NCBI GenBank assembly: GCA_016936975.1
Contig: JAFGWU010000005.1
Span: 18,327-82,326 of the forward strand
Length of the DNA stretch: 64,000 nucleotides
Origin: Bacteroidales bacterium
GTDB taxonomy: Bacteria > Bacteroidota > Bacteroidia > Bacteroidales > GCA-2748055
Direction of reading: 5' to 3'
The notes beneath the pieces are model-generated. The model saw nothing but the letters and a program-made list of their open reading frames with translations, made no database searches and was not told where the DNA came from. Below, one piece after another: positions 24,492 to 35,913 of the stretch (the stretch's first letter is position 1; every line of letters starts with the position of its first letter). A program made the translations under genes and the position numbers.

Positions 24492-24521
24492 TTTGCCAAT
24501 TCACAAAAATACCTATTTTTG
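24492..24521 (+). promoter_or_regulatory. Candidate Bacteroidota promoter for the nqr operon (-33 TTTG, 18-nt spacer, -7 TATTTTTG)
   Basis: TTTG at 24492-24495 and TATTTTTG (TAnnTTTG) at 24514-24521, 32 nt upstream of the nqrA ATG. Confidence 0.4.
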
Positions 24522-24552: not shown

Positions 24553-25905
24553 ATGTCTGAAGTCATAAAAATCAAGAAAGGGTTAAATATCAAACTGAAA
24601 GGAGAGGCAGATAAAATCCGTGTGCAGGCTCCCAGGTCCGCCACCTACGCGGTAAAACCGGTTGATTTCCAATCGCTCACGCCCAAAATTGATGCCAGGC
24701 CATGTGATGAAGTCAAGGTTGGAACCACTCTGTTCCACGATAAGTATCGTCCGGAGATCCGGTATTCCTCCCCGGTAAGCGGCAAGGTATTATCGATTCT
24801 CAGGGGAGAGCGCAGGCGCATCATATCGGTAGTTGTCGAGGATGACGGTAAGGATACCATGGAGACTTTCCTGAAGGGAAATCCAAACGATCTGACCAGG
24901 GAACAGATCATTAAAAATTTGCTGGATAGCGGGATGTGGCCGATGATCAGGCAGCGACCGTTCAATATTGTGGCCAATCCGCAGGATGTTCCCAAATCGA
25001 TTTTTATTTCCGGTTTCGATACCGCCCCGCTGGCCCCGGATTACGATTATATTATGAAGGATCAGCTGGAGGATTTTCAATGGGGTATCGATGCCCTTAG
25101 GAAACTCACCAGCGGGAAAATTCACCTGAACCAGAGTGCCAATTATCCTGTGGTAAATACGTTCAGAAACATCAGGAATGTACAGATCAACAGCTTTTCG
25201 GGACCGCATCCTGCCGGAAATGCAGGCATCCAGATTCACCATATCGATCCGATCAACAAAAATGAGCGGGTCTGGATTGTTCAGCCCCAGGAAGTGTCTG
25301 CCATTGGACGATTGTTCAGGAGCGGCAACTATGATCCGAAAATGATTGTGGCCCTGACCGGTTCGGAGGTTAAAAAGCCGCTGTATTACCGTGTCATCCG
25401 CGGGGCAGAGGTATCCACCATCTTGCAGGACAACGTCGGAGAGGGGGATGTGCGGTACATCAGCGGGAATGTGCTGAGCGGCCGGCAGGTCCCGGCAGAT
25501 GGTCATCTTGGTTATTATGCCTATCAGCTGACAGTGATTCCCGAAGGGAAGCATCATGAAATGTTCGGATGGATAAAGCCGGGATTATCCAAATTTTCAG
25601 CTTCCCGCACCTTCCTGTCATGGATGATACCGAACCGTAAATACAGGCTGGATACCAATATGCATGGAGGGGAGAGGGCTTTTGTGATGACCGGCGAATA
25701 TAATAAGGTTCTGCCCATGAATATCCTCCCGGTTCAGCTGCTCAAATCCATTCTGGTGGAAGATATCGACAGGATGGAACAGCTGGGGATTTACGAGGTC
25801 TGCGAGGAGGATCTCGCGCTTTGCGAGTTCGTCTGTACTTCCAAAACACCGGTAACGGCAATATTAAGGAAGGGACTGGATACCATCAGGAAAGAAATGG
25901 AATAG
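24553..25905 (+). CDS. nqrA: Na+-translocating NADH:quinone reductase subunit A
   Basis: 450 aa, first gene of a six-gene nqr operon. Typical IKKGLNIKLKGEA start. Confidence 0.9.
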   Translation: MSEVIKIKKGLNIKLKGEADKIRVQAPRSATYAVKPVDFQSLTPKIDARPCDEVKVGTTLFHDKYRPEIRYSSPVSGKVLSILRGERRRIISVVVEDDGKDTMETFLKGNPNDLTREQIIKNLLDSGMWPMIRQRPFNIVANPQDVPKSIFISGFDTAPLAPDYDYIMKDQLEDFQWGIDALRKLTSGKIHLNQSANYPVVNTFRNIRNVQINSFSGPHPAGNAGIQIHHIDPINKNERVWIVQPQEVSAIGRLFRSGNYDPKMIVALTGSEVKKPLYYRVIRGAEVSTILQDNVGEGDVRYISGNVLSGRQVPADGHLGYYAYQLTVIPEGKHHEMFGWIKPGLSKFSASRTFLSWMIPNRKYRLDTNMHGGERAFVMTGEYNKVLPMNILPVQLLKSILVEDIDRMEQLGIYEVCEEDLALCEFVCTSKTPVTAILRKGLDTIRKEME

Positions 25906-25930
25906 AAACAACTATTTTCAAGAATACAAA

Positions 25931-27112
25931 ATGAGTGCTCTTAGACGATTCGTTGACAAAATCAAACCACATTTTGTTAAGGGAGGGAGATTTTCAATGT
26001 TCCAGTCCACATTTGAAGGATTTGAAACATTTCTCTTTGTTCCCGACACCGTAACCAGCGGGAGTGTACACATCAGGGACGGGAACGATATGAAACGGAC
26101 CATGATTATGGTGGTCCTTGCATTGATCCCTGCATTGCTGTTCGGAATCTGGAACACCGGGTACCAGCATTTTCTCGCTGTCGGTCAGGAAGCCGGTTTC
26201 TGGCAGATGGTCTGGTTCGGTTTCCTTAAGGTGTTACCCATCATCATTGTTTCTTATGTTGTCGGGCTGGGGATAGAATTTACCTTTGCACAGATCAGGG
26301 GGCATGAGATCAATGAAGGGTTCCTGGTTACGGGGATGCTGATTCCGCTCGTTGTGCCGGTTGATGTCCCCTTATGGATGGTTGCCCTCGCCACCGCCTT
26401 TGCCGTGATTATCGGAAAGGAGGTTTTTGGGGGTACGGGAATGAATATTTTGAACCCGGCATTGACAGCCAGGGCCTTCCTGTTTTTTGCCTATCCCGGT
26501 GATATGTCCGGCGATAAGGTATGGATCGAGGGACTGAAGAACGGAGAGGGGATCGTTGACGGATTTTCAGGAGCAACCTTACTCGGACAGGCCGCCCAGA
26601 ACCAGACCACCTTTCTCAACGGTATCGGCGAACCGATTACCCCTTTTCAGATGTTCCTCGGCAATATACCGGGATCAATCGGGGAAACTTCCACCCTGGC
26701 TATTCTCCTTGGGGCATTTCTATTGATCTATACAGGTGTGGGAAGCTGGAAGATCATCCTCTCCGTCTTTGCCGGTGGTGCTTTAATGGGATGGATCCTG
26801 AATATTTTTGCCGTCAATGAATTCATGGCCCTTCCGTTCTGGCAGCATCTTATACTCGGTGGATTTGCATTCGGTGCCGTATTCATGGCAACGGATCCGG
26901 TTACCGCCGCACAGACGGAGAGGGGGAAGTGGATATATGGTTTTCTTATAGGAGTCCTTGCCATTCTTATCAGGGTACTCAATCCTGCCTATCCCGAAGG
27001 GGTGATGCTGGCCATTTTGTTTATGAATGTTTTTTCACCCCTTATCGATCATTACGTGATCGAAGCAAACATCAGGAAGCGGTTAAAACGTGCTAAAGTT
27101 CAAGCAAATTAA
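25931..27112 (+). CDS. nqrB: Na+-NQR subunit B
   Basis: Polytopic membrane protein with the flavinylation motif GFSGATLLG. Confidence 0.9.
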   Translation: MSALRRFVDKIKPHFVKGGRFSMFQSTFEGFETFLFVPDTVTSGSVHIRDGNDMKRTMIMVVLALIPALLFGIWNTGYQHFLAVGQEAGFWQMVWFGFLKVLPIIIVSYVVGLGIEFTFAQIRGHEINEGFLVTGMLIPLVVPVDVPLWMVALATAFAVIIGKEVFGGTGMNILNPALTARAFLFFAYPGDMSGDKVWIEGLKNGEGIVDGFSGATLLGQAAQNQTTFLNGIGEPITPFQMFLGNIPGSIGETSTLAILLGAFLLIYTGVGSWKIILSVFAGGALMGWILNIFAVNEFMALPFWQHLILGGFAFGAVFMATDPVTAAQTERGKWIYGFLIGVLAILIRVLNPAYPEGVMLAILFMNVFSPLIDHYVIEANIRKRLKRAKVQAN

Positions 27113-27117
27113 GCGAT

Positions 27118-27873
27118 ATGAAACAATTCAGCAACACATATATTTTCATCTTCTCCATGGTTATGGTGCTTATCGTAGCCGTTTTGCTCTCTTTCGTGGC
27201 GATGCAGCTCGGACCCCGACAGGAGATGAATGTTCAGAATGAACGAAAGCAGGACATCCTGCGTTCGGTTGGGAAGGCTGAGAAACTGAAGGAAGCCGAA
27301 GACAGGATAGCCTATATCGATGAGGAGTTCAGAACCTACATCAGCGATTCCTATGTGGTCAATTATGAAGGAGAAAGAGTGGATGCAGATGCATTTGCAA
27401 TTACCCTGCGGATCAGGGATGAGGTATCAGAAGCTCCGGAGGATCGTCTTTACCCGGTTTTTACCTATACAGACGAACAGGATGAGGTAATGTATATTGT
27501 GCCGGTTTACGGGAAAGGGTTGTGGGGGCCCATCTGGGGTTATGTTTCCTTTCATGCTGACATGAATACCATCAACGGCGCCGTGTTCGATCATAAGGGG
27601 GAAACACCCGGACTGGGAGCTGAGATAAACACCGATTGGTTTCAGGAAGCATTCAGGGGAAAAACGATTTTTGATGAAAAGGGAGCGTTTAAATCGATCA
27701 GGGTGGTGAAGGGTGGTGCCGATCCGGATGATCCGCATGGTGTGGATGCCATTTCCGGCGGAACCATTACTTCAAAGGGGCTTGAGGCCATGCTGAAGAA
27801 TTGCCTGTCGGGCTACATCAATCATTTTAAGATGCAGGGAAATCTGACATACGGAATGAATCATTCAATCTAA
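27118..27873 (+). CDS. nqrC: Na+-NQR subunit C
   Basis: Single N-terminal TM and an FMN attachment-type motif VDAISGGTITSKG. Confidence 0.9.
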   Translation: MKQFSNTYIFIFSMVMVLIVAVLLSFVAMQLGPRQEMNVQNERKQDILRSVGKAEKLKEAEDRIAYIDEEFRTYISDSYVVNYEGERVDADAFAITLRIRDEVSEAPEDRLYPVFTYTDEQDEVMYIVPVYGKGLWGPIWGYVSFHADMNTINGAVFDHKGETPGLGAEINTDWFQEAFRGKTIFDEKGAFKSIRVVKGGADPDDPHGVDAISGGTITSKGLEAMLKNCLSGYINHFKMQGNLTYGMNHSI

Positions 27874-27884
27874 ACTGAAGTTCT

Positions 27885-28532
27885 ATGAACAGTGATAATG
27901 AACCTTTATTCTCCGCGAAGAATCTGAAATTATTGAAAGAACCTCTCGGATCGAGTAACCCCATTACGGTCCAGGTACTGGGGATCTGTTCGGCGCTGGC
28001 CGTAACGGTTAAATTGAAGCCTTCCATCGTGATGGCGATCTCGGTAATGGCGGTTCTGGCAGTGTCGAATGTGGTCATCTCCCTGCTGAGAAAGCGTATT
28101 CCGCCAAGGATACGCATCATCGTTCAACTGGTGGTGATCGCGACAATGGTGATCCTGGTTGATGAAATCCTGAAGGCATTTGCCTATGAGATAAGCAAAC
28201 AATTATCGGTATTTGTGGGATTGATTATCACCAACTGCATCATTATGGGCCGGCTCGAAGCTTTTGCCATGGGGAACAAACCCTGGCCCTCCCTGCTCGA
28301 CGGGCTGGGAAATGCAGCCGGGTATGGATTGATACTGATCATCGTTGCATTTTTCAGGGAGCTGCTGGGTTCAGGGACCATCCTGGATTACCAGGTGATC
28401 CCAAACAGTTTTTACGAATTCGGATATGTTAATAACGGTTTGATGATCCTGCCTCCGATGGCCCTGATCGTTGTAGGAATCATCATCTGGATACAACGGT
28501 CGAGGAACAAGGATTTAGTTGAAAACCGGTAA
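27885..28532 (+). CDS. nqrD: Na+-NQR subunit D
   Basis: 215 aa membrane protein with NPITVQVLGICSALAVT. Confidence 0.9.
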   Translation: MNSDNEPLFSAKNLKLLKEPLGSSNPITVQVLGICSALAVTVKLKPSIVMAISVMAVLAVSNVVISLLRKRIPPRIRIIVQLVVIATMVILVDEILKAFAYEISKQLSVFVGLIITNCIIMGRLEAFAMGNKPWPSLLDGLGNAAGYGLILIIVAFFRELLGSGTILDYQVIPNSFYEFGYVNNGLMILPPMALIVVGIIIWIQRSRNKDLVENR

Positions 28533-28547
28533 ACCTGTAATATAACC

Positions 28548-29165
28548 ATGGAAAATCTGGTCAATATATTTGTCAAGTCGATTTTTATTGAAAATATGAT
28601 CTTTGCCTACTTCCTGGGCATGTGTTCATATCTGGCTGTTTCGAAAACGGTAAAGACCTCAATGGGACTGGGTATCGCTGTCATCTTTGTGCTGGGATTC
28701 ACGGTTCCCTTAAACTTTCTGATTGAGAACTATGTGCTGAAGGAGGGGGCGCTGGAATGGATCAGTCCGTCGCTGGCCGATGTCGATCTCAGCTTCCTGA
28801 GTTTCATCATGTTTATAGCAGTGATTGCATCGATGGTACAGCTGGTGGAGATGGTGATCGAGAAGTTCACGCCTGCACTTTACAATTCACTGGGTATTTT
28901 TCTTCCCCTGATTGCCGTGAACTGTGCGATCCTCGGAGGTTCGCTCTTCATGCAGGAGCGGGAATATGCCAACATTGCCGAGGCGGCTGTCTTCGGACTG
29001 GGTTCAGGGGTGGGCTGGCTGCTTGCCATTGTGGGCATTGCTGCCATTCGTGAAAAGATCCGGTATTCAAATATTCCCGCTCCCCTGAGGGGACTGGGAA
29101 TTACGTTTATCATAACGGGATTGATGGGAATTGCCTTTATGAGTTTTATGGGAATCAGTCTGTAA
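28548..29165 (+). CDS. nqrE: Na+-NQR subunit E
   Basis: 205 aa membrane protein with [18 protein letters not shown] and [11 protein letters not shown]. Confidence 0.9.
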
Positions 29166-29182
29166 TTTGAAAATGGTTTAAA

Positions 29183-30436
29183 ATGATATTTCTCACTTCA
29201 TCGCTTGCTGTTATAGGAATCAGTGCGGCAGTGTTCCTGCTGATAATTCTCGCGCTGGTCCTGATGCTGTTATATGCCCGGAAGAAGCTTACCCCCCAGG
29301 GCGATGTCAAATTAAAGATTAACGACAGGGAGGAGACCGTATCCCCGGGATCCACGGTATTATCGACCCTGTCCAACATGAACATATACCTTCCTTCTGC
29401 CTGCGGGGGAGGGGGAACCTGCGGGATGTGCAAATGCCAGATAATGGAAGGAGGCGGGTCCATTCTGCCAACGGAGACAGGATTCTTCACCCGCAAGGAA
29501 CAGCAGAACAACTGGAGGCTGGGCTGTCAGGTCAAGGTCCGGGAGGATATGGTCATCAAAATTCCGGAAGAGATCATGGGCATCAGGAAGTGGGAATGTG
29601 AGGTCGTATCTAACCGGAATGTGGCCACCTTTATCAAGGAGTTTGTGGTGCGCCTGCCGGAGGGAGAACGCCTGAACTTTCAGTCCGGGGGCTATGTTCA
29701 GATTGATGTTCCCAGGGTGGAGGTTGACTTCTCAAAGGATATCGAGGTGGAGGAACAATTCCGTGATGAATGGGACCGCTTCAGAATGTGGGACCTGAAG
29801 ATGAAGAATTCGGAGGAGACCTTCCGGGCCTATTCCATGGCCAATCACCCGGCTGAAGGAAATATCATCATGCTCAACATCCGTATCGCCACTCCTCCAT
29901 GGGATGTCAGTCACGGGCGGTTCAGGAATGTGAACCCCGGGGTTTGTTCTTCCTATATTTTTTCGCGCAAACCGGGCGATAAGGTAAGTATCTCAGGACC
30001 TTACGGGGAGTTCTTTATCAAGGACACCAAACGGGAGATGATTTACATCGGGGGAGGTGCCGGGATGGCCCCGCTGCGGTCACACCTGTTCCACCTGTTC
30101 CACACCCTGAAGACCGATCGGAAAGTCTCGTACTGGTATGGTGCACGTTCAAAACGTGAGATCTTTTACGAAAAAGACTTCAGGGATATCGAGAAAAAGT
30201 TTCCTAATTTCACTTTCAACATAGCCCTCTCCGAACCCAAAGAAGAGGATAACTGGGATGGATATACGGGATTCATTCACCAGGTTCTCTATGATAATTA
30301 TTTGCGCCATCATGAAGAGCCGGAGGAGGTGGAATATTACATGTGCGGACCGCCCATGATGAATGATGCTGTTCAGAAGCTTCTCTATAACCTTGGGGTT
30401 CCGGAGGAAATGATAGACTTTGATGATTTCGGATAA
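29183..30436 (+). CDS. nqrF: Na+-NQR subunit F (2Fe-2S/FAD/NADH)
   Basis: N-terminal TM, CGGGGTCGMCKC ferredoxin cluster, RAYSMAN FAD motif and GGGAGMAP NADH motif. Confidence 0.9.
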   Translation: MIFLTSSLAVIGISAAVFLLIILALVLMLLYARKKLTPQGDVKLKINDREETVSPGSTVLSTLSNMNIYLPSACGGGGTCGMCKCQIMEGGGSILPTETGFFTRKEQQNNWRLGCQVKVREDMVIKIPEEIMGIRKWECEVVSNRNVATFIKEFVVRLPEGERLNFQSGGYVQIDVPRVEVDFSKDIEVEEQFRDEWDRFRMWDLKMKNSEETFRAYSMANHPAEGNIIMLNIRIATPPWDVSHGRFRNVNPGVCSSYIFSRKPGDKVSISGPYGEFFIKDTKREMIYIGGGAGMAPLRSHLFHLFHTLKTDRKVSYWYGARSKREIFYEKDFRDIEKKFPNFTFNIALSEPKEEDNWDGYTGFIHQVLYDNYLRHHEEPEEVEYYMCGPPMMNDAVQKLLYNLGVPEEMIDFDDFG

Positions 30437-31451
30437 GAACACCGGTTTACGGATTTTCATTTTACTCACCACCCTGCTGGCAGCCTCCTGTACATCTGAT
30501 TTTTCAGGGGGGAAATACTATACTGTTGCCGGCTTTACCCAGGGAACCACCTATCATGTGACCTACCATTCGGGCGATTCATTGGATCTCTCCTTTCAGA
30601 TTGATTCACTGCTCGCTGTTTTCGACAGCTCACTCTCAGCCTATCTCCCCGGAAGTATCATTTCATCAATCAACGATAACAGGGATGAACCGGTCACCGA
30701 TACGTTATTCCGTACCGTATTCAGGGAGGCCAAACGGATCCATGAGCTGACGGGCGGCGCTTTTGATATTACCGTGGGACCGCTCATCGATGCATGGGGA
30801 TTCGGCCCCGGAGAAAAAATGAATGTTGACAGCAGTGTGATTGACAGCCTGCTTCAGTTTGTCGGGATGGATAAGGTTAAGTTGGTGAATAACCGGATCG
30901 AGAAATCCCATCCGGGAATGAGACTGGATGTGAATGCCATTGCACAGGGTTATGCGGTTGATTTCCTTTCAGCTTACCTTGAGGGGAGGGGTATCCGGGA
31001 TTATATGGTTGAAGTGGGAGGCGAGGTAAGGACCAGGGGTCTCAACCCGCGGGGCAGGTTATGGGGTATAGGAATCGACCGGCCCGAATTTGGTAACTAT
31101 CTTCCCGGGAACCACCTGGAGGTCATCATTCGTATGTCGGGCAGATCCCTTGCCACATCGGGTAATTACAGAAAATTTTTTGAGAAGGATGGGATCAAGT
31201 ACCACCATTCAGTTGATCCCGCGACGGGTTACCCCAAGCAGGACCGGCTTCTGAGCGCCACCATCCTGGCCGGATCGTGCATGACCGCCGATGCATTGGC
31301 CACGGCCTGCATGGTGATGGGCCTCGACAGGGCCAGGTCATTTATTACAGAGCTGGATGGAGTGGATGCTTTCTTTATTTTCAATGATGAGGCGGGCATC
31401 TACCGTGTGTGGCATACGCCAGGACTGCGAAAGTACCTGGAGAATCCCTAG
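30420..31451 (+). CDS. apbE: FAD:protein FMN transferase (lipoprotein)
   Basis: Lipobox LLAASC. GGAFDITVGPL, DVNAIAQGYAVD and HHSVDPATGYP. Overlaps the nqrF 3' end by 17 nt. Confidence 0.85.
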   Translation: MMISDKNTGLRIFILLTTLLAASCTSDFSGGKYYTVAGFTQGTTYHVTYHSGDSLDLSFQIDSLLAVFDSSLSAYLPGSIISSINDNRDEPVTDTLFRTVFREAKRIHELTGGAFDITVGPLIDAWGFGPGEKMNVDSSVIDSLLQFVGMDKVKLVNNRIEKSHPGMRLDVNAIAQGYAVDFLSAYLEGRGIRDYMVEVGGEVRTRGLNPRGRLWGIGIDRPEFGNYLPGNHLEVIIRMSGRSLATSGNYRKFFEKDGIKYHHSVDPATGYPKQDRLLSATILAGSCMTADALATACMVMGLDRARSFITELDGVDAFFIFNDEAGIYRVWHTPGLRKYLENP

Positions 31452-31645
31452 GCTGGCCTCTTTGTGCCGGGATCACAGGCTCCCCCGCAGCAGCAGGAAA
31501 ACTCATTGCCTTCTGCTTTATCTGCTGATGTTGAGCAACAGGTTCCGGAAAGCCGGGCATCCCGTTTGAACAGCAATCTGATCCCAAGGCCGGCCATGGA
31601 CAGGATCAATAAAGCTGCAGATATTAAAATTACGGTTAACAGCAT
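31448..31645 (-). CDS. Small single-TM Cys-rich membrane protein (hypothetical)
   Basis: 65 aa. TM segment LLTVILISAALLILSMAGLGIRLLF followed by GTCCS...FSCCCGGAC (6 Cys). The N-terminus is paralogous to the adjacent small ORF. The stop overlaps the apbE stop within CCTAGG. Confidence 0.5.
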   Translation of the reverse strand: MLLTVILISAALLILSMAGLGIRLLFKRDARLSGTCCSTSADKAEGNEFSCCCGGACDPGTKRPA

Positions 31646-31662
31646 AACGATCGTTTAACAAA

Positions 31663-31902
31663 TTAACCGGTAACTTGTTTGCAATCCGCACACTCTTTTT
31701 TATCCGTTTTCCTGAGGCTTTTCCGGTAGCATTTCAATTCATCGTGACTGGCGCAGGAGATTCCGAGCTTTTTCATCGCCGGGTTGTGTCCTACCCTGTA
31801 GGCCGGAAACTTACCCTTCTTCCTGAACAGGATATTGAAGGAGAGACCAACCATAGAAAGGCTGAGCAATATAATGGCGATGAACACTATATTCAATAAC
31901 AT
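31663..31902 (-). CDS. Small single-TM four-Cys membrane protein (hypothetical)
   Basis: 79 aa from ATG 31902. MLLNIVFIAIILLSLSMVGLSFNILFRKKG followed by ISCASHDELKC...ECADC. Lies 17 nt upstream of the other miniprotein on the same strand. Confidence 0.55.
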   Translation of the reverse strand: MLLNIVFIAIILLSLSMVGLSFNILFRKKGKFPAYRVGHNPAMKKLGISCASHDELKCYRKSLRKTDKKECADCKQVTG

Positions 31903-31952: not shown

Positions 31953-31960
31953 CAAAGATA
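31953..31960 (-). promoter_or_regulatory. Candidate -7 box TATCTTTG (minus strand) for the miniprotein pair
   Basis: The reverse complement of caaagata is TATCTTTG (TAnnTTTG), about 51 nt upstream of ATG 31902. Confidence 0.3.
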
Positions 31961-32005: not shown

Positions 32006-34414
32006 ATGGGAGAGCAATCAGAAGGTTTTGACAAACATATTGTTCTTGCTGACTTTCAACTGGCCCACCTGAGCAGGCAGATGGCCCTGCTTGCCCGCAA
32101 AGAGGTTTTATCCGGCAAGGCCAAGTTCGGAATATTCGGGGACGGTAAGGAGGTTGCCCAGATCGCCCTGGCCAAGCAGTTCAGAAATGGAGACTGGCGG
32201 TCGGGTTATTACAGGGACCATACCTTTATGATGGCTGCCGGACTGGTTACCGCAACCCAATTCTTTGCCCAGGTTTACGGCCTTACCGATGATGAGATCA
32301 ATCCCGGGAATGCAGGCAGGAATTTCAATAATCATTTTGCCACCAGGATTATCAACAGGGACGGCTCCTGGAGAAATCTTACCGAAATGAAAAATTCGGC
32401 TGCCGATCTGTCTCCGACGGCCGGACAGATGCCTCGCCTGGTGGGGCTCGGATATGCATCCAGTCTGTTCCGCAATAACCCGGATCTAAAGCATATGACC
32501 CGCTTCTCCAGAAATGGAGATGAGGTGGCTTTCGGCATGATTGGAGATGCCAGCACTGCGGAGGGACATTTCTTTGAAACGGTCAATGCGTCAGCGGTAC
32601 TCCAGATCCCCGTAGCCATTGCGGTCTGGGATGACGGATACGGTATTTCGGTTACCCGCGATCACCAGATCGTCAAGCAGAGCATTTCAGAGGCGCTCCA
32701 GGGATTTCAGAAGGAGGAGGGGACCAACGGCATTCACATTTTTAAAGGCAAAGGATGGGATTATCCGGGCCTGGTAAAAATGTTTGAGGAGGGCATTGCC
32801 CTGTGCAGGAAGGAACATGCGCCCGTGCTGTTTCACGTGGATGAGATGGTTCAGCCAACCGGGCACTCCACCTCCGGGAGTCATGAACGCTATAAGTCAA
32901 AGGAGCGTCTCGGGTGGGAAGCCGAATATGATCCGCTGTTGAAAATGGAGGAGTGGCTCCTCGGTTCGGGAATAGCTTCCCGGGAGGAGCTGGAGGAGAT
33001 AAAATCCGGGGCAGTGGTGGAAGCCAGGGAGGCAAGGGATGAAGCCTGGAAGGCATATACCGGACCGATTCTCACGGAGCGCGATGAACTCCTGCATATA
33101 ATCGATAACCGATCCTGTGTCTGCCAGAATGAGGGGATTGATAAACTGGGAATCCTGAGCCGGGACCTGAAGCGGATCATGCATCCGATCCGGAAGGATG
33201 TGCAGAGTACTGCAAAACGAATCATGAGACACATGTGCGAAACCTGTCCGGTTAAAAAAGAGCTGCAAGCCGGCATCTCTGCATGGCTGGGAAAGTACAG
33301 GGAAGATAACTATGAGCGCTACAGCTCCATGCTGTATTCCGAAACCGATCGTTCGGCGCTGAAAGTAGAACCGGTGGAACCGGTTTACGGTGACGACGGT
33401 CCTATGGTAACGGGAAGGGAGATTATCAGGGACAATTTCGATGCCCTGCTGAACCGTGATCCCCGCATTGTGATTTTCGGGGAGGATACGGGCAAGATAG
33501 GAGATGTCAATAAGAGTCTTGAAGGACTCCAGGAGAAATACGGTGTTCAGAGGGTGACGGATACGGGGATACGGGAGACGACCATAATCGGTCAGGGGAT
33601 GGGGATGGCCCTGAGGGGATTGAGGCCGGTGGCTGAAATACAGTATTTTGATTACCTTTTGTATGCGCTTCAAACGATCAGTGACGACCTGGCTACCCTG
33701 CACTGGAGAACAAAGGGGGCACAGATTGCGCCTCTCATCATCCGAACCAGGGGACACCGGCTGGAGGGTGTCTGGCATTCGGGTTCCCCCCTGAGCATGG
33801 TAATCAATTCCATCCGTGGTGTCTATGTCTGCGTGCCCAGGAATATGACCCAGGCGGCGGGCATGTATAATACACTGCTCGAAGCCGATGATCCCGCACT
33901 GGTGATTGAGCCGCTCAAGGGTTATGGATTGAAGGAACCGAGACCCGAAAATATGGGTCAGTTCAGGGTGCCGCTCGGACAGCCGGAAATTCTGAATGAA
34001 GGAAAGGATGTGACGCTGGTGACCTATGGGTCCTGTGTAAGGATTGCCCTGACGGCTATTGAACAGCTCAGTGCATTTGATATCGGGGTGGAGCTGATTG
34101 ATGTCCAGACCCTGTTGCCTTTTGACAGAAACCATATGATCGCAGATTCCATAAAGAAGACAAACAAAGTGGTATTTTTTGATGAGGATGTGCCGGGCGG
34201 TGCCACCGCCTTTATGATGCAGAAAGTGCTCCAGGAGCAAAGGGCCTTCTATTATCTCGAATCGGAACCGGTCACCCTGACAGCCCGGGAGCACCGGCCC
34301 GCTTATAGCTCAGACGGGGATTACTTCTCCAATCCGAATGCCGAGGATGTGTTCGAGGTTATTTACGGGTTGATGCATGAAACGAATCCGGAGAAATACC
34401 CGAAAATCTATTAA
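32006..34414 (+). CDS. Fused alpha/beta E1 component of a 2-oxoacid dehydrogenase (TPP-dependent)
   Basis: 802 aa. The N-half resembles E1-alpha (GDGKEVAQIALA..., IGDASTAEGHFFE). The C-half resembles E1-beta (FGEDTGKIGDVNK...RVTDTGIRETTIIGQGMGMALRGLRPVAEIQYFDY). Confidence 0.75.
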   Translation: MGEQSEGFDKHIVLADFQLAHLSRQMALLARKEVLSGKAKFGIFGDGKEVAQIALAKQFRNGDWRSGYYRDHTFMMAAGLVTATQFFAQVYGLTDDEINPGNAGRNFNNHFATRIINRDGSWRNLTEMKNSAADLSPTAGQMPRLVGLGYASSLFRNNPDLKHMTRFSRNGDEVAFGMIGDASTAEGHFFETVNASAVLQIPVAIAVWDDGYGISVTRDHQIVKQSISEALQGFQKEEGTNGIHIFKGKGWDYPGLVKMFEEGIALCRKEHAPVLFHVDEMVQPTGHSTSGSHERYKSKERLGWEAEYDPLLKMEEWLLGSGIASREELEEIKSGAVVEAREARDEAWKAYTGPILTERDELLHIIDNRSCVCQNEGIDKLGILSRDLKRIMHPIRKDVQSTAKRIMRHMCETCPVKKELQAGISAWLGKYREDNYERYSSMLYSETDRSALKVEPVEPVYGDDGPMVTGREIIRDNFDALLNRDPRIVIFGEDTGKIGDVNKSLEGLQEKYGVQRVTDTGIRETTIIGQGMGMALRGLRPVAEIQYFDYLLYALQTISDDLATLHWRTKGAQIAPLIIRTRGHRLEGVWHSGSPLSMVINSIRGVYVCVPRNMTQAAGMYNTLLEADDPALVIEPLKGYGLKEPRPENMGQFRVPLGQPEILNEGKDVTLVTYGSCVRIALTAIEQLSAFDIGVELIDVQTLLPFDRNHMIADSIKKTNKVVFFDEDVPGGATAFMMQKVLQEQRAFYYLESEPVTLTAREHRPAYSSDGDYFSNPNAEDVFEVIYGLMHETNPEKYPKIY

Positions 34415-35913
34415 GTTTCCAGCTTTTCTCCTTCCGAAATTTTCCCCGAAGGCTTTTCATCTTTGCCAAACCTGTGAATTTTGTAATTGATGGAGGCAAA
34501 AAGAATGCTGAAAAGCGGGCTGAGCAGGTTGAAAAAGGCATATGGGAGGTATTCTATCGTCGGTACGCCGAGAACCCGTGATTGTGTGGCTCCGCAGGTG
34601 TTCCACGGGACCAGGACCGAGGTGAGGGTCCCTCCATCCTCCAGGGTTCTGCTGAGGACCTCGGGTTTAAGTCCCCGCTTTTTGTATTCATCTGCGAACA
34701 TTCTGCCCGGGACCACGATCGCGATGTACTGGTCCGAGGCGGTAATATTGAAAAAGATACTGGTGGCGATGGTGGTTCCCACCAGTGAGCCGGTTGAGCG
34801 AGCCCATTTTATGATTGAACCTGTTATTTTTACCAGCAGGCCGGCTGATTCCATGCTTCCTCCGAAAATCATGGCGGCCAGTATCAGCCATATCGTATTT
34901 AACATTCCCCGCATGCCGGTTGAGGTCAGCAGTTCATTCACCAGCTCATTGCCGGTAGAGATGGTCTGTTCCCCAAAAATTGCCTGCATGATTGAAAGGT
35001 ATGAGGCTTTAAAAAATGAGGTGACATTTTCATCCGCAGCCTGGGCCATTTCCCTGACCAGGTGCGGCTGAAATATCAGGGCAAAGAGGGCTCCCATTAA
35101 CGAACCTGCCAGCAGGGAGGGCAGAGGCGGGATTTTACGGATGATGATGACGAGCAGGAATAACGGAACCAGCATCAGCCAGGGCGTCACATTGAATTTA
35201 CTGTCGATGGCGCTCAAAATCTGGTCGATATCTTCCGGGGCGGAATTAAAATCCTTTGTAAAACCCAGTATCAGAAATATTATCAGGGTTAAAGACAGTG
35301 CCGGAACGGTGGTAATGGTCATGTACCGTATATGCGTGAACAGATCGGTCCCTGCCATCGCAGGGGCCAGGTTGGTCGTGTCGGACAGGGGCGACATCTT
35401 ATCTCCGAAATAGGCACCTGAAATAATCGCCCCGGCTGCAAGGCCTTCATTAATACCCAGGGCTTTCCCGACCCCGATCAGGGCGATCCCGATGGTGGCA
35501 ACTGTGGCCCATGAGCTGCCGGTGGCAAGGGAAACCATACCTGCAATTATCACGCTCGCGAAAAGGAAAATGCCCGGATTGAAGATCTTTAAACCGTAAT
35601 AAATAAGAGAAGGGATGACCCCGCTTAACATCCAGGTTCCGGCAAGCGCCCCAATCATCAGCAGGATTAAAATCGATGGCATGGCCGTGCTGATACTGTT
35701 TACAATGCTCTCCCTTATCTGCTCCCACGAACGCCCCAGCACGATGGCGATGATGCCGGCTACGGCTGATCCCAGGATCAGGGCAATCTGGTTGGCCCCG
35801 TCCAATGTACGATCACCGAAGTAAATTACGTTAAATACCAGGAGGGTTATCAGAACCGCAATGGGAAAAAGTGCCTGAAAGAGATTGGGATTCCTGTGCT
35901 TTTTCTGAGCCAT
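34411..35913 (-). CDS. nhaC: Na+/H+ antiporter, NhaC family
   Basis: 500 aa polytopic membrane protein with NhaC-like sequence throughout (GSAVAGIIAI..., SGAYFGDKMSPLSDTTNLA). Confidence 0.8.
   Translation of the reverse strand: MAQKKHRNPNLFQALFPIAVLITLLVFNVIYFGDRTLDGANQIALILGSAVAGIIAIVLGRSWEQIRESIVNSISTAMPSILILLMIGALAGTWMLSGVIPSLIYYGLKIFNPGIFLFASVIIAGMVSLATGSSWATVATIGIALIGVGKALGINEGLAAGAIISGAYFGDKMSPLSDTTNLAPAMAGTDLFTHIRYMTITTVPALSLTLIIFLILGFTKDFNSAPEDIDQILSAIDSKFNVTPWLMLVPLFLLVIIIRKIPPLPSLLAGSLMGALFALIFQPHLVREMAQAADENVTSFFKASYLSIMQAIFGEQTISTGNELVNELLTSTGMRGMLNTIWLILAAMIFGGSMESAGLLVKITGSIIKWARSTGSLVGTTIATSIFFNITASDQYIAIVVPGRMFADEYKKRGLKPEVLSRTLEDGGTLTSVLVPWNTCGATQSRVLGVPTIEYLPYAFFNLLSPLFSILFASINYKIHRFGKDEKPSGKISEGEKLET

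Follow-up and report, generated by a model that had tools for sequence, protein, structure and literature searches.

Two paralogous cysteine-rich membrane miniproteins beside the Na+-NQR operon of a Bacteroidales bacterium, one of them from a family probably related to NqrM

The subject of this analysis is a pair of small genes, ORF1 and ORF2, that face the Na+-NQR operon in a 64,000-nucleotide stretch of a Bacteroidales genome (contig JAFGWU010000005.1; the whole stretch is hereafter called the window). On the plus strand, the operon nqrABCDEF, recognized by Pfam matches, occupies positions 24553-30436 and leads into apbE, the flavin transferase gene (30420-31451; Pfam PF02424, E 1.5e-82). 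On the minus strand lie two tandem open reading frames (ORFs): ORF1, of 79 aa (31663-31902), and ORF2, of 65 aa (31448-31645), separated by a spacer of 17 nt (31646-31662). A candidate Bacteroidota -7 promoter box, TATCTTTG, is found on the same strand at 31953-31960, 50 nt 5' of the ORF1 ATG. ORF2 converges on apbE, and the two genes overlap by 4 nt inside the hexamer CCTAGG, which supplies a TAG on both strands. This layout (the tandem pair, the upstream box and the distal ORF ending inside the apbE stop) had been described in an earlier, sequence-only reading of the same DNA, and the coordinates bear it out on every point. In its longest frame apbE itself has a TTG start and shares 17 nt (30420-30436) with the end of nqrF, and the true start may be downstream.

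Both proteins begin with a transmembrane (TM) helix, one each, formed by a hydrophobic stretch over residues 2-26 and followed by K/R, and both continue into a cysteine-rich tail. In ORF1 the helix is followed by KKGKFPAYRVGHN..LGISC..H..C...CxxC, with cysteines at C50, C58, C71 and C74 (C50-x7-C58-x12-C71-x2-C74); in ORF2 it is followed by C37-x13-C51-x-C53-x3-C57, with extra cysteines at 36 and 52. The sequence-only reading was therefore right in counting four cysteines in the first tail and six in the second (C36, C37, C51, C52, C53 and C57), and equally so in assigning a common N-terminal helix to the two: over the first 32 residues they share 41% identity (BLASTP E 6e-8). The relationship extends to the families that each represents (ORF1-type and ORF2-type), as the two profiles align with an hhalign probability of 97.6% (E 3e-12), and under a hidden Markov model (HMM) of ORF2 the median score is 37.9 bits for real ORF1-type proteins and 21.1 for decoys whose tails were shuffled (p 1e-23). 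Two copies only, ORF1 and ORF2, are present in the source genome. A 102-aa version of ORF1 with a GTG start was also considered and set aside, being unsupported by the family alignment.

A word-index homolog search with ORF2 returned no match, and its exact sequence is absent from the public protein collection; its homologs were reached through synteny, then by a six-frame search of 151 genomes from the order (the order sample, about 149 genera), and then of 301 Bacteroidota genomes (the phylum sample). Two related contigs carry syntenic ORFs of 65-66 aa in which the helix and the cysteines are kept. An alignment of 32 ORF2-type sequences from different families of the order (A3) displays the TM helix, a KK cluster and four invariant or near-invariant cysteines in the arrangement C-x11-14-C-x-C-x3-9-C; outside Bacteroidales the middle motif is C-x2-C, so that the whole family is described by C-x11-14-C-x(1-2)-C-x3-9-C. 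About 664 representative clusters match the ORF2-type at E<=1e-3 among 1.84 billion proteins. Many frames of such length arise by chance, and the empty word-index search, together with the absence of the exact ORF2 sequence from public gene calls, is what one would expect if one or both ORFs were chance reading frames; this explanation is refuted for practical purposes by conservation, as the syntenic homologs retain the helix and all four cysteines at only 28-40% identity, representative clusters number in the hundreds, and promoter boxes are enriched 5' of the homologs. We regard its probability as next to nil: ORF1 and ORF2 are real, conserved genes, and paralogs of each other. Pfam and NCBIfam yielded no family for either ORF or for either family alignment, and public records call the members "hypothetical protein" or "membrane or secreted protein" (WP_310283289.1 from Flavobacterium piscis is one instance).

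The ORF1-type is the narrower of the two in its known carriers. Twenty homologs at 49-67% identity share the invariant motif FPAYRVGHN...G..C, and in this close set the four cysteine positions are invariant or nearly so; across the wider ORF1-type alignment (A6), K28, F32, P33, N40 and C50 are kept, and most members have four tail cysteines at a spacing unlike that of the ORF2-type. At the third position after the invariant cysteine, 23 of 48 members have His, 10 have Thr and 9 have Cys, a pattern that hints at metal ligation. ORF1-type genes are present in 80 of the 151 order genomes, and all named carriers are Bacteroidales or unclassified Bacteroidota metagenome-assembled genomes (MAGs), including MAGs labelled Bacteroidaceae, Prevotellaceae, Rikenellaceae, Muribaculaceae and Williamwhitmania. 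From this distribution the ORF1-type appears to be a Bacteroidales-specific paralog family of the ORF2-type.

The distribution of both types follows that of NQR. In the phylum sample, where nqrA was scored by PF05896, ORF2-type genes were found in 55 and nqrA in 77 of the 301 genomes; every one of the 55 carriers has nqrA, and in the 224 genomes without nqrA no ORF2-type gene was found. The two counts are identical even within families in which NQR is patchy (13 of 22, 22 of 49, and 2 of 3 genomes). In the order sample, one or the other type occurs in 117 of 125 nqrA-positive versus 5 of 26 nqrA-negative genomes; the five exceptions are weak matches or incomplete assemblies, one of them with nqrF and apbE beside the gene. 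The corresponding Fisher p of 8e-15 overstates the association because related genomes are not independent, but the within-family co-occurrence pattern remains telling despite relatedness. Considered separately, the ORF1-type is nqrA-positive in 78 of its 80 carriers (p 2e-7), both exceptions again being incomplete assemblies. The only sampled genome of the source's own family (G127) had no match; the contig ends about 5.8 kb from its nqrA, and the operon has probably been cut there.

Gene neighbourhood gives a similar picture. Within the order, 15 of 29 ORF2-type loci abut apbE, nqrF or nqrA; in a family that includes Balneola (f171), all 22 ORF2-type genes are located some 7 kb away from the start of nqrA, and in most of the loci fetched from it the gene converges on apbE, as in the window. 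Adjacency to apbE is seen again in three orders or classes. At four loci of Bacteroidales genomes (L016, L019, L029 and L035) the ORF2-type gene also adjoins a gene for a SpoU/TrmH-like RNA methyltransferase, called by sequence motif only, and at L035 it is flanked by this gene on one side and by apbE on the other.

Some NQR-bearing lineages show other arrangements. In the family f172, a third kind of small single-TM ORF, of 66-69 aa and with a tail of the form DSGCCGGGxC...C, is found 3' of apbE on the same strand, as nqrM is in Vibrio (L111:5531-5731, minus; L113:8684-8893, plus). The nqrA genes of this family score closest to the Pfam model; the small ORFs reach 16 and 6.5 bits against an NqrM HMM and do not match the ORF1 or ORF2 models. 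In two further groups, f164/g210 and f153 (loci L110, L112 and L114; genomes G353, G216 and G290), nqrA is present with neither ORF type and no PF04400 match, no apbE gene stands next to nqrF, and no small TM cysteine-rich ORF was seen in the 15 kb fetched.

On its other side, ORF1 is divergent from a plus-strand gene of the window (32006-34414) that encodes a fused E1 alpha/beta 2-oxoacid dehydrogenase of 802 aa, recognized by Pfam; an NhaC-type antiporter gene comes next beyond it (also Pfam), and the TATCTTTG box falls within the 103-nt region common to ORF1 and the E1 gene. ORF1 might on this ground serve the E1 dehydrogenase, or the NhaC antiporter, and not NQR, and the frequency of the arrangement speaks for that possibility and counts against an NQR role: E1 is within 2.5 kb in 51 of 80 ORF1-type loci, versus 19 of 80 for apbE or nqrF, and the same head-to-head pairing is seen in at least 8 families of the order. 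Across the 151 genomes, however, the ORF1-type has no association with E1 (odds ratio 0.91, p 0.87): it is found in none of the 10 genomes that are E1-positive and nqrA-negative, and in 46 of the 73 that are E1-negative and nqrA-positive. Since the ORF1-type is independent of E1 across genomes, its E1 neighbourhood is inherited gene order and not a functional tie. E1 enzymes, moreover, need no cysteine-bound metal centre, and we consider a role of ORF1 in the service of E1 or NhaC highly improbable. The block extending from the E1 gene (32006-35913 in the window; also loci L002, L003 and L006) is itself syntenic across several Bacteroidales contigs, with genes for E1, NhaC, DUF179, a HAD hydrolase, a rhomboid protein and DNA polymerase III delta; nqr-apbE is joined to the E1-NhaC block in only some contigs, others having a polysaccharide epimerase gene there.

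Evidence on expression comes from a sediment metatranscriptome of the same study as the DNA runs in which the window is contained. Over 12 kb, three contigs match exactly. Two of them fall in nqrB and nqrE, respectively, and the third, of 157 nt (31689-31845), lies inside ORF1; it gives weak support for expression of ORF1, as DNA carry-over is possible. The sequence TAnnTTTG is not significant by itself in the window (32 occurrences versus 31.75 expected), and a scan for intrinsic terminators found none. Among homologous loci, TAnnTTTG is found 4-35 nt 5' of the start in 15 of 29 ORF1-type and 13 of 37 ORF2-type loci (the pooled count is reported as 30 of 66). At paired loci elsewhere it precedes ORF1 alone in four cases, ORF2 alone in one and both genes in one, so the box positions lean toward one transcription unit with its own promoter, and the ORF1-ORF2 pair is probably one such unit. 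A similar box, TATTTTTG, at 24514-24521 on the plus strand, 31 nt 5' of the nqrA start, is a plausible -7 element of the nqr operon.

In Proteobacteria, NqrM (DUF539, PF04400) is a maturation factor of Na+-NQR, for which two papers (PMC12174285, PMC6209661) cite the work of Kostyrko and colleagues (2016, Journal of Bacteriology 198:655). The sequence-only reading had proposed both miniproteins of the window as candidate NqrM-like factors; this is supported, with the limit that the ORF1 family shows no NqrM signal of its own. A check named in that reading, whether the genome has any further DUF539 gene, came out in its favour: a six-frame search of the source genome found no PF04400 gene, the best match elsewhere in it having an E of 1.3. 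PF04400 likewise exceeds its cut-off (22 bits) in none of the 301 Bacteroidota genomes; the sole sub-threshold match, at 18 bits, was discarded as an antisense frame of an isocitrate dehydrogenase-like gene. The expectation that the genes and their cysteines would be conserved, often next to apbE or nqr, is borne out in several orders.

NqrM sequences for comparison were retrieved with a probe alignment (A4); only the proteins that it returned were used, and all 120 of those listed carry PF04400. Bona fide NqrM has the pattern C33-x11-C45-x-C47-x3-C51; of these four cysteines it is the first that is essential. ORF1 and ORF2, like the alignments A6 and A3, share the build of NqrM: small size, a single N-terminal TM helix and a short tail. 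ORF2 also has the four-cysteine pattern, with x13 in place of x11 and the same C-x-C-x3-C spacing, and ORF1 lacks it. When A3 was aligned with 28 NqrM sequences, hhalign gave a probability of 94.9% (E 4e-8) over 60 columns, pairing C with C, CxC with CxC and C with C. The observed score of 43.1 was reached by none of 100 permutations of the NqrM tail columns (31.4 +/- 3.5). The tails compared without the TM helix score 9.7, versus 9.5 when permuted, which is not above control and also speaks against the homology; a large part of the hhalign score is therefore owed to the helix and to the register that the helix fixes. The signal that is left after this control would be real but modest. An NqrM HMM places 71 real ORF2-type proteins above their tail-shuffled decoys (p 2e-10), and the gene at L010:1450-1674 (minus strand, genome G036) reaches 35.6 bits, the best of 1419 decoys having 22.3; its product shares GGSC, GI.C.C and EPCD with NqrM. 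In a language-model search, to be taken as a lead only, the Pfam-bearing cluster nearest to either type was NqrM. Together, these comparisons suggest that the ORF2 family is a probable remote homolog of NqrM, lying outside PF04400 as that family is defined. The L010 protein carries GGSC...GISCACGSEEPCD, which is far nearer to the GSCGG...CDCPEPCD of NqrM than the other members are, and is a potential bridge sequence for a joint model.

A different affinity, with the FeoB-associated cysteine-rich peptides (PF12669), was also weighed: ORF1 and ORF2 would then be general membrane-anchored metal-binding peptides, with no NQR-specific role and a position that is merely inherited. The architecture is alike (a TM helix with a cysteine-rich tail), six of the 32 ORF2-type members have weak PF12669 matches (best E 0.005), and in many genomes the gene is not next to nqr. 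The matches nevertheless lie mainly over the TM helix and none exceeds the cut-off of 27 bits among the ORF2-type members; 15 weak PF12669 matches exist in the source genome, and ORF1 and ORF2 are not among them. The absence of the ORF2-type from nqrA-negative genomes and its repeated adjacency to apbE likewise stand against a general role, which we think very unlikely.

We hypothesize, with fair though not strong confidence, that ORF2 is a divergent NqrM-type factor of Bacteroidota that delivers Fe or Fe-S to NqrD and NqrE, and that ORF1 is its partner or substitute. In the source genome both proposed targets have two cysteine motifs of the kind that bind a membrane Fe-S centre: GICSALA and TNCIIMG in NqrD, and GMCSYLA (with Cys26) and VNCAILGG in NqrE. 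ORF2 would be a single-pass membrane protein, its short tail being placed in the cytoplasm because the K/R cluster comes after the helix; the four conserved cysteines of this tail may take up Fe or a small Fe-S unit at the surface of the membrane and would pass it on, during assembly of Na+-NQR, to the Cys4 site that lies between NqrD and NqrE. ORF1, probably co-transcribed with ORF2 from a promoter upstream of ORF1, may act in the same pathway, either as a partner or, in the many Bacteroidales genomes with the ORF1-type only, as a substitute or sole factor.

Beyond the E1 neighbourhood and the tail-only control given above, several results weigh against this hypothesis. No PF04400 match to ORF1, ORF2 or the 32 ORF2-type members appears even at E<=10; the ORF1-type aligns with NqrM at an hhalign probability of 42%, shows no shift of HMM scores over decoys, and has only one invariant cysteine (C50, in A6). 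The gene lies far from nqr in many genomes, and in Flavobacterium-like genomes it is usually 24-60 kb off or on another contig; where it is adjacent, it mostly converges on apbE and is not co-transcribed with it, unlike the nqrM of Vibrio. No member was detectable in 22 nqrA-positive genomes of the phylum sample, which belong to three families. No metatranscriptome contig falls on ORF2, as is equally the case for apbE and E1 in the 12 kb covered, and a predicted complex of NqrD, NqrE and ORF2 scored 0.08 against a mark of 0.32, a result that is neither support nor counter-evidence.

Co-occurrence and adjacency do not discriminate an assembly role from an accessory one, and fit equally well with ORF1 and ORF2 being linked to NQR as accessory subunits, stabilisers, or redox- or metal-sensing regulators. 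The candidate promoter of their own, outside the nqr operon, and the single invariant cysteine of the ORF1-type would suit such roles. What separates the two is the ORF2 family's likeness to NqrM, a proven maturation factor, in the four-cysteine pattern and its register; to our knowledge, moreover, the solved structures of Vibrio NQR show six subunits and no further small one. An accessory or regulatory role is in our judgement unlikely, and maturation is the reading that we retain for ORF2. A broader scheme can be imagined, in which Bacteroidales would use a two-component, membrane-anchored Fe-S delivery system, the ORF2-type and ORF1-type proteins jointly holding the NqrD/E cluster, and in which a single superfamily of single-pass membrane metallochaperones would embrace NqrM, both families described here, the SGCCGGG type of f172 and the FeoB-associated peptides, every type being devoted to a membrane complex of its own; we offer this as speculation, and as rather doubtful.

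Bacteroides, Prevotella, Porphyromonas and many marine Bacteroidota have NQR as their main respiratory NADH dehydrogenase, and the enzyme is under discussion as a drug target; in Proteobacteria, active NQR is not made without NqrM. An equivalent of NqrM is not annotated in Bacteroidota, and neither Pfam nor NCBIfam has a model for the proteins described here. Full-text searching, whose reach did not include the original description of NqrM, found no paper that names a Bacteroidota counterpart. Naming a likely counterpart suggests a possible reason for any failure of heterologous expression of Bacteroidota NQR, makes two small-protein families available to annotation pipelines, and, in the paralog pair, offers a system for examining how Fe-S centres come to be inserted midway through a membrane.

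Among known systems, the FeoB-associated peptides of PF12669 resemble ORF1 and ORF2 in being small single-pass proteins with a predicted cytoplasmic, cysteine-rich tail and a presumed function in iron handling; they differ in the cysteine pattern and in the genomic partner, which here is NQR/apbE and not feoB. NqrM is the closer comparison. Like NqrM, ORF2-type proteins have 60-90 aa, one N-terminal TM helix, a basic cluster and four conserved cysteines, are often encoded beside apbE/nqr, and in the phylum sample are confined to genomes with NQR. Unlike NqrM, they do not match PF04400 and share about 15% identity with it: GSCGG is replaced by GG(S/T)C or K(S/T)C, CDCPEPCD by GCxCG, and outside Bacteroidales by C-x2-C. 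The NqrM gene is downstream in the operon, whereas ORF2-type genes usually have a candidate promoter of their own and converge on apbE; and in Bacteroidales, unlike the carriers of NqrM, the system appears to have been duplicated into two paralogous families.

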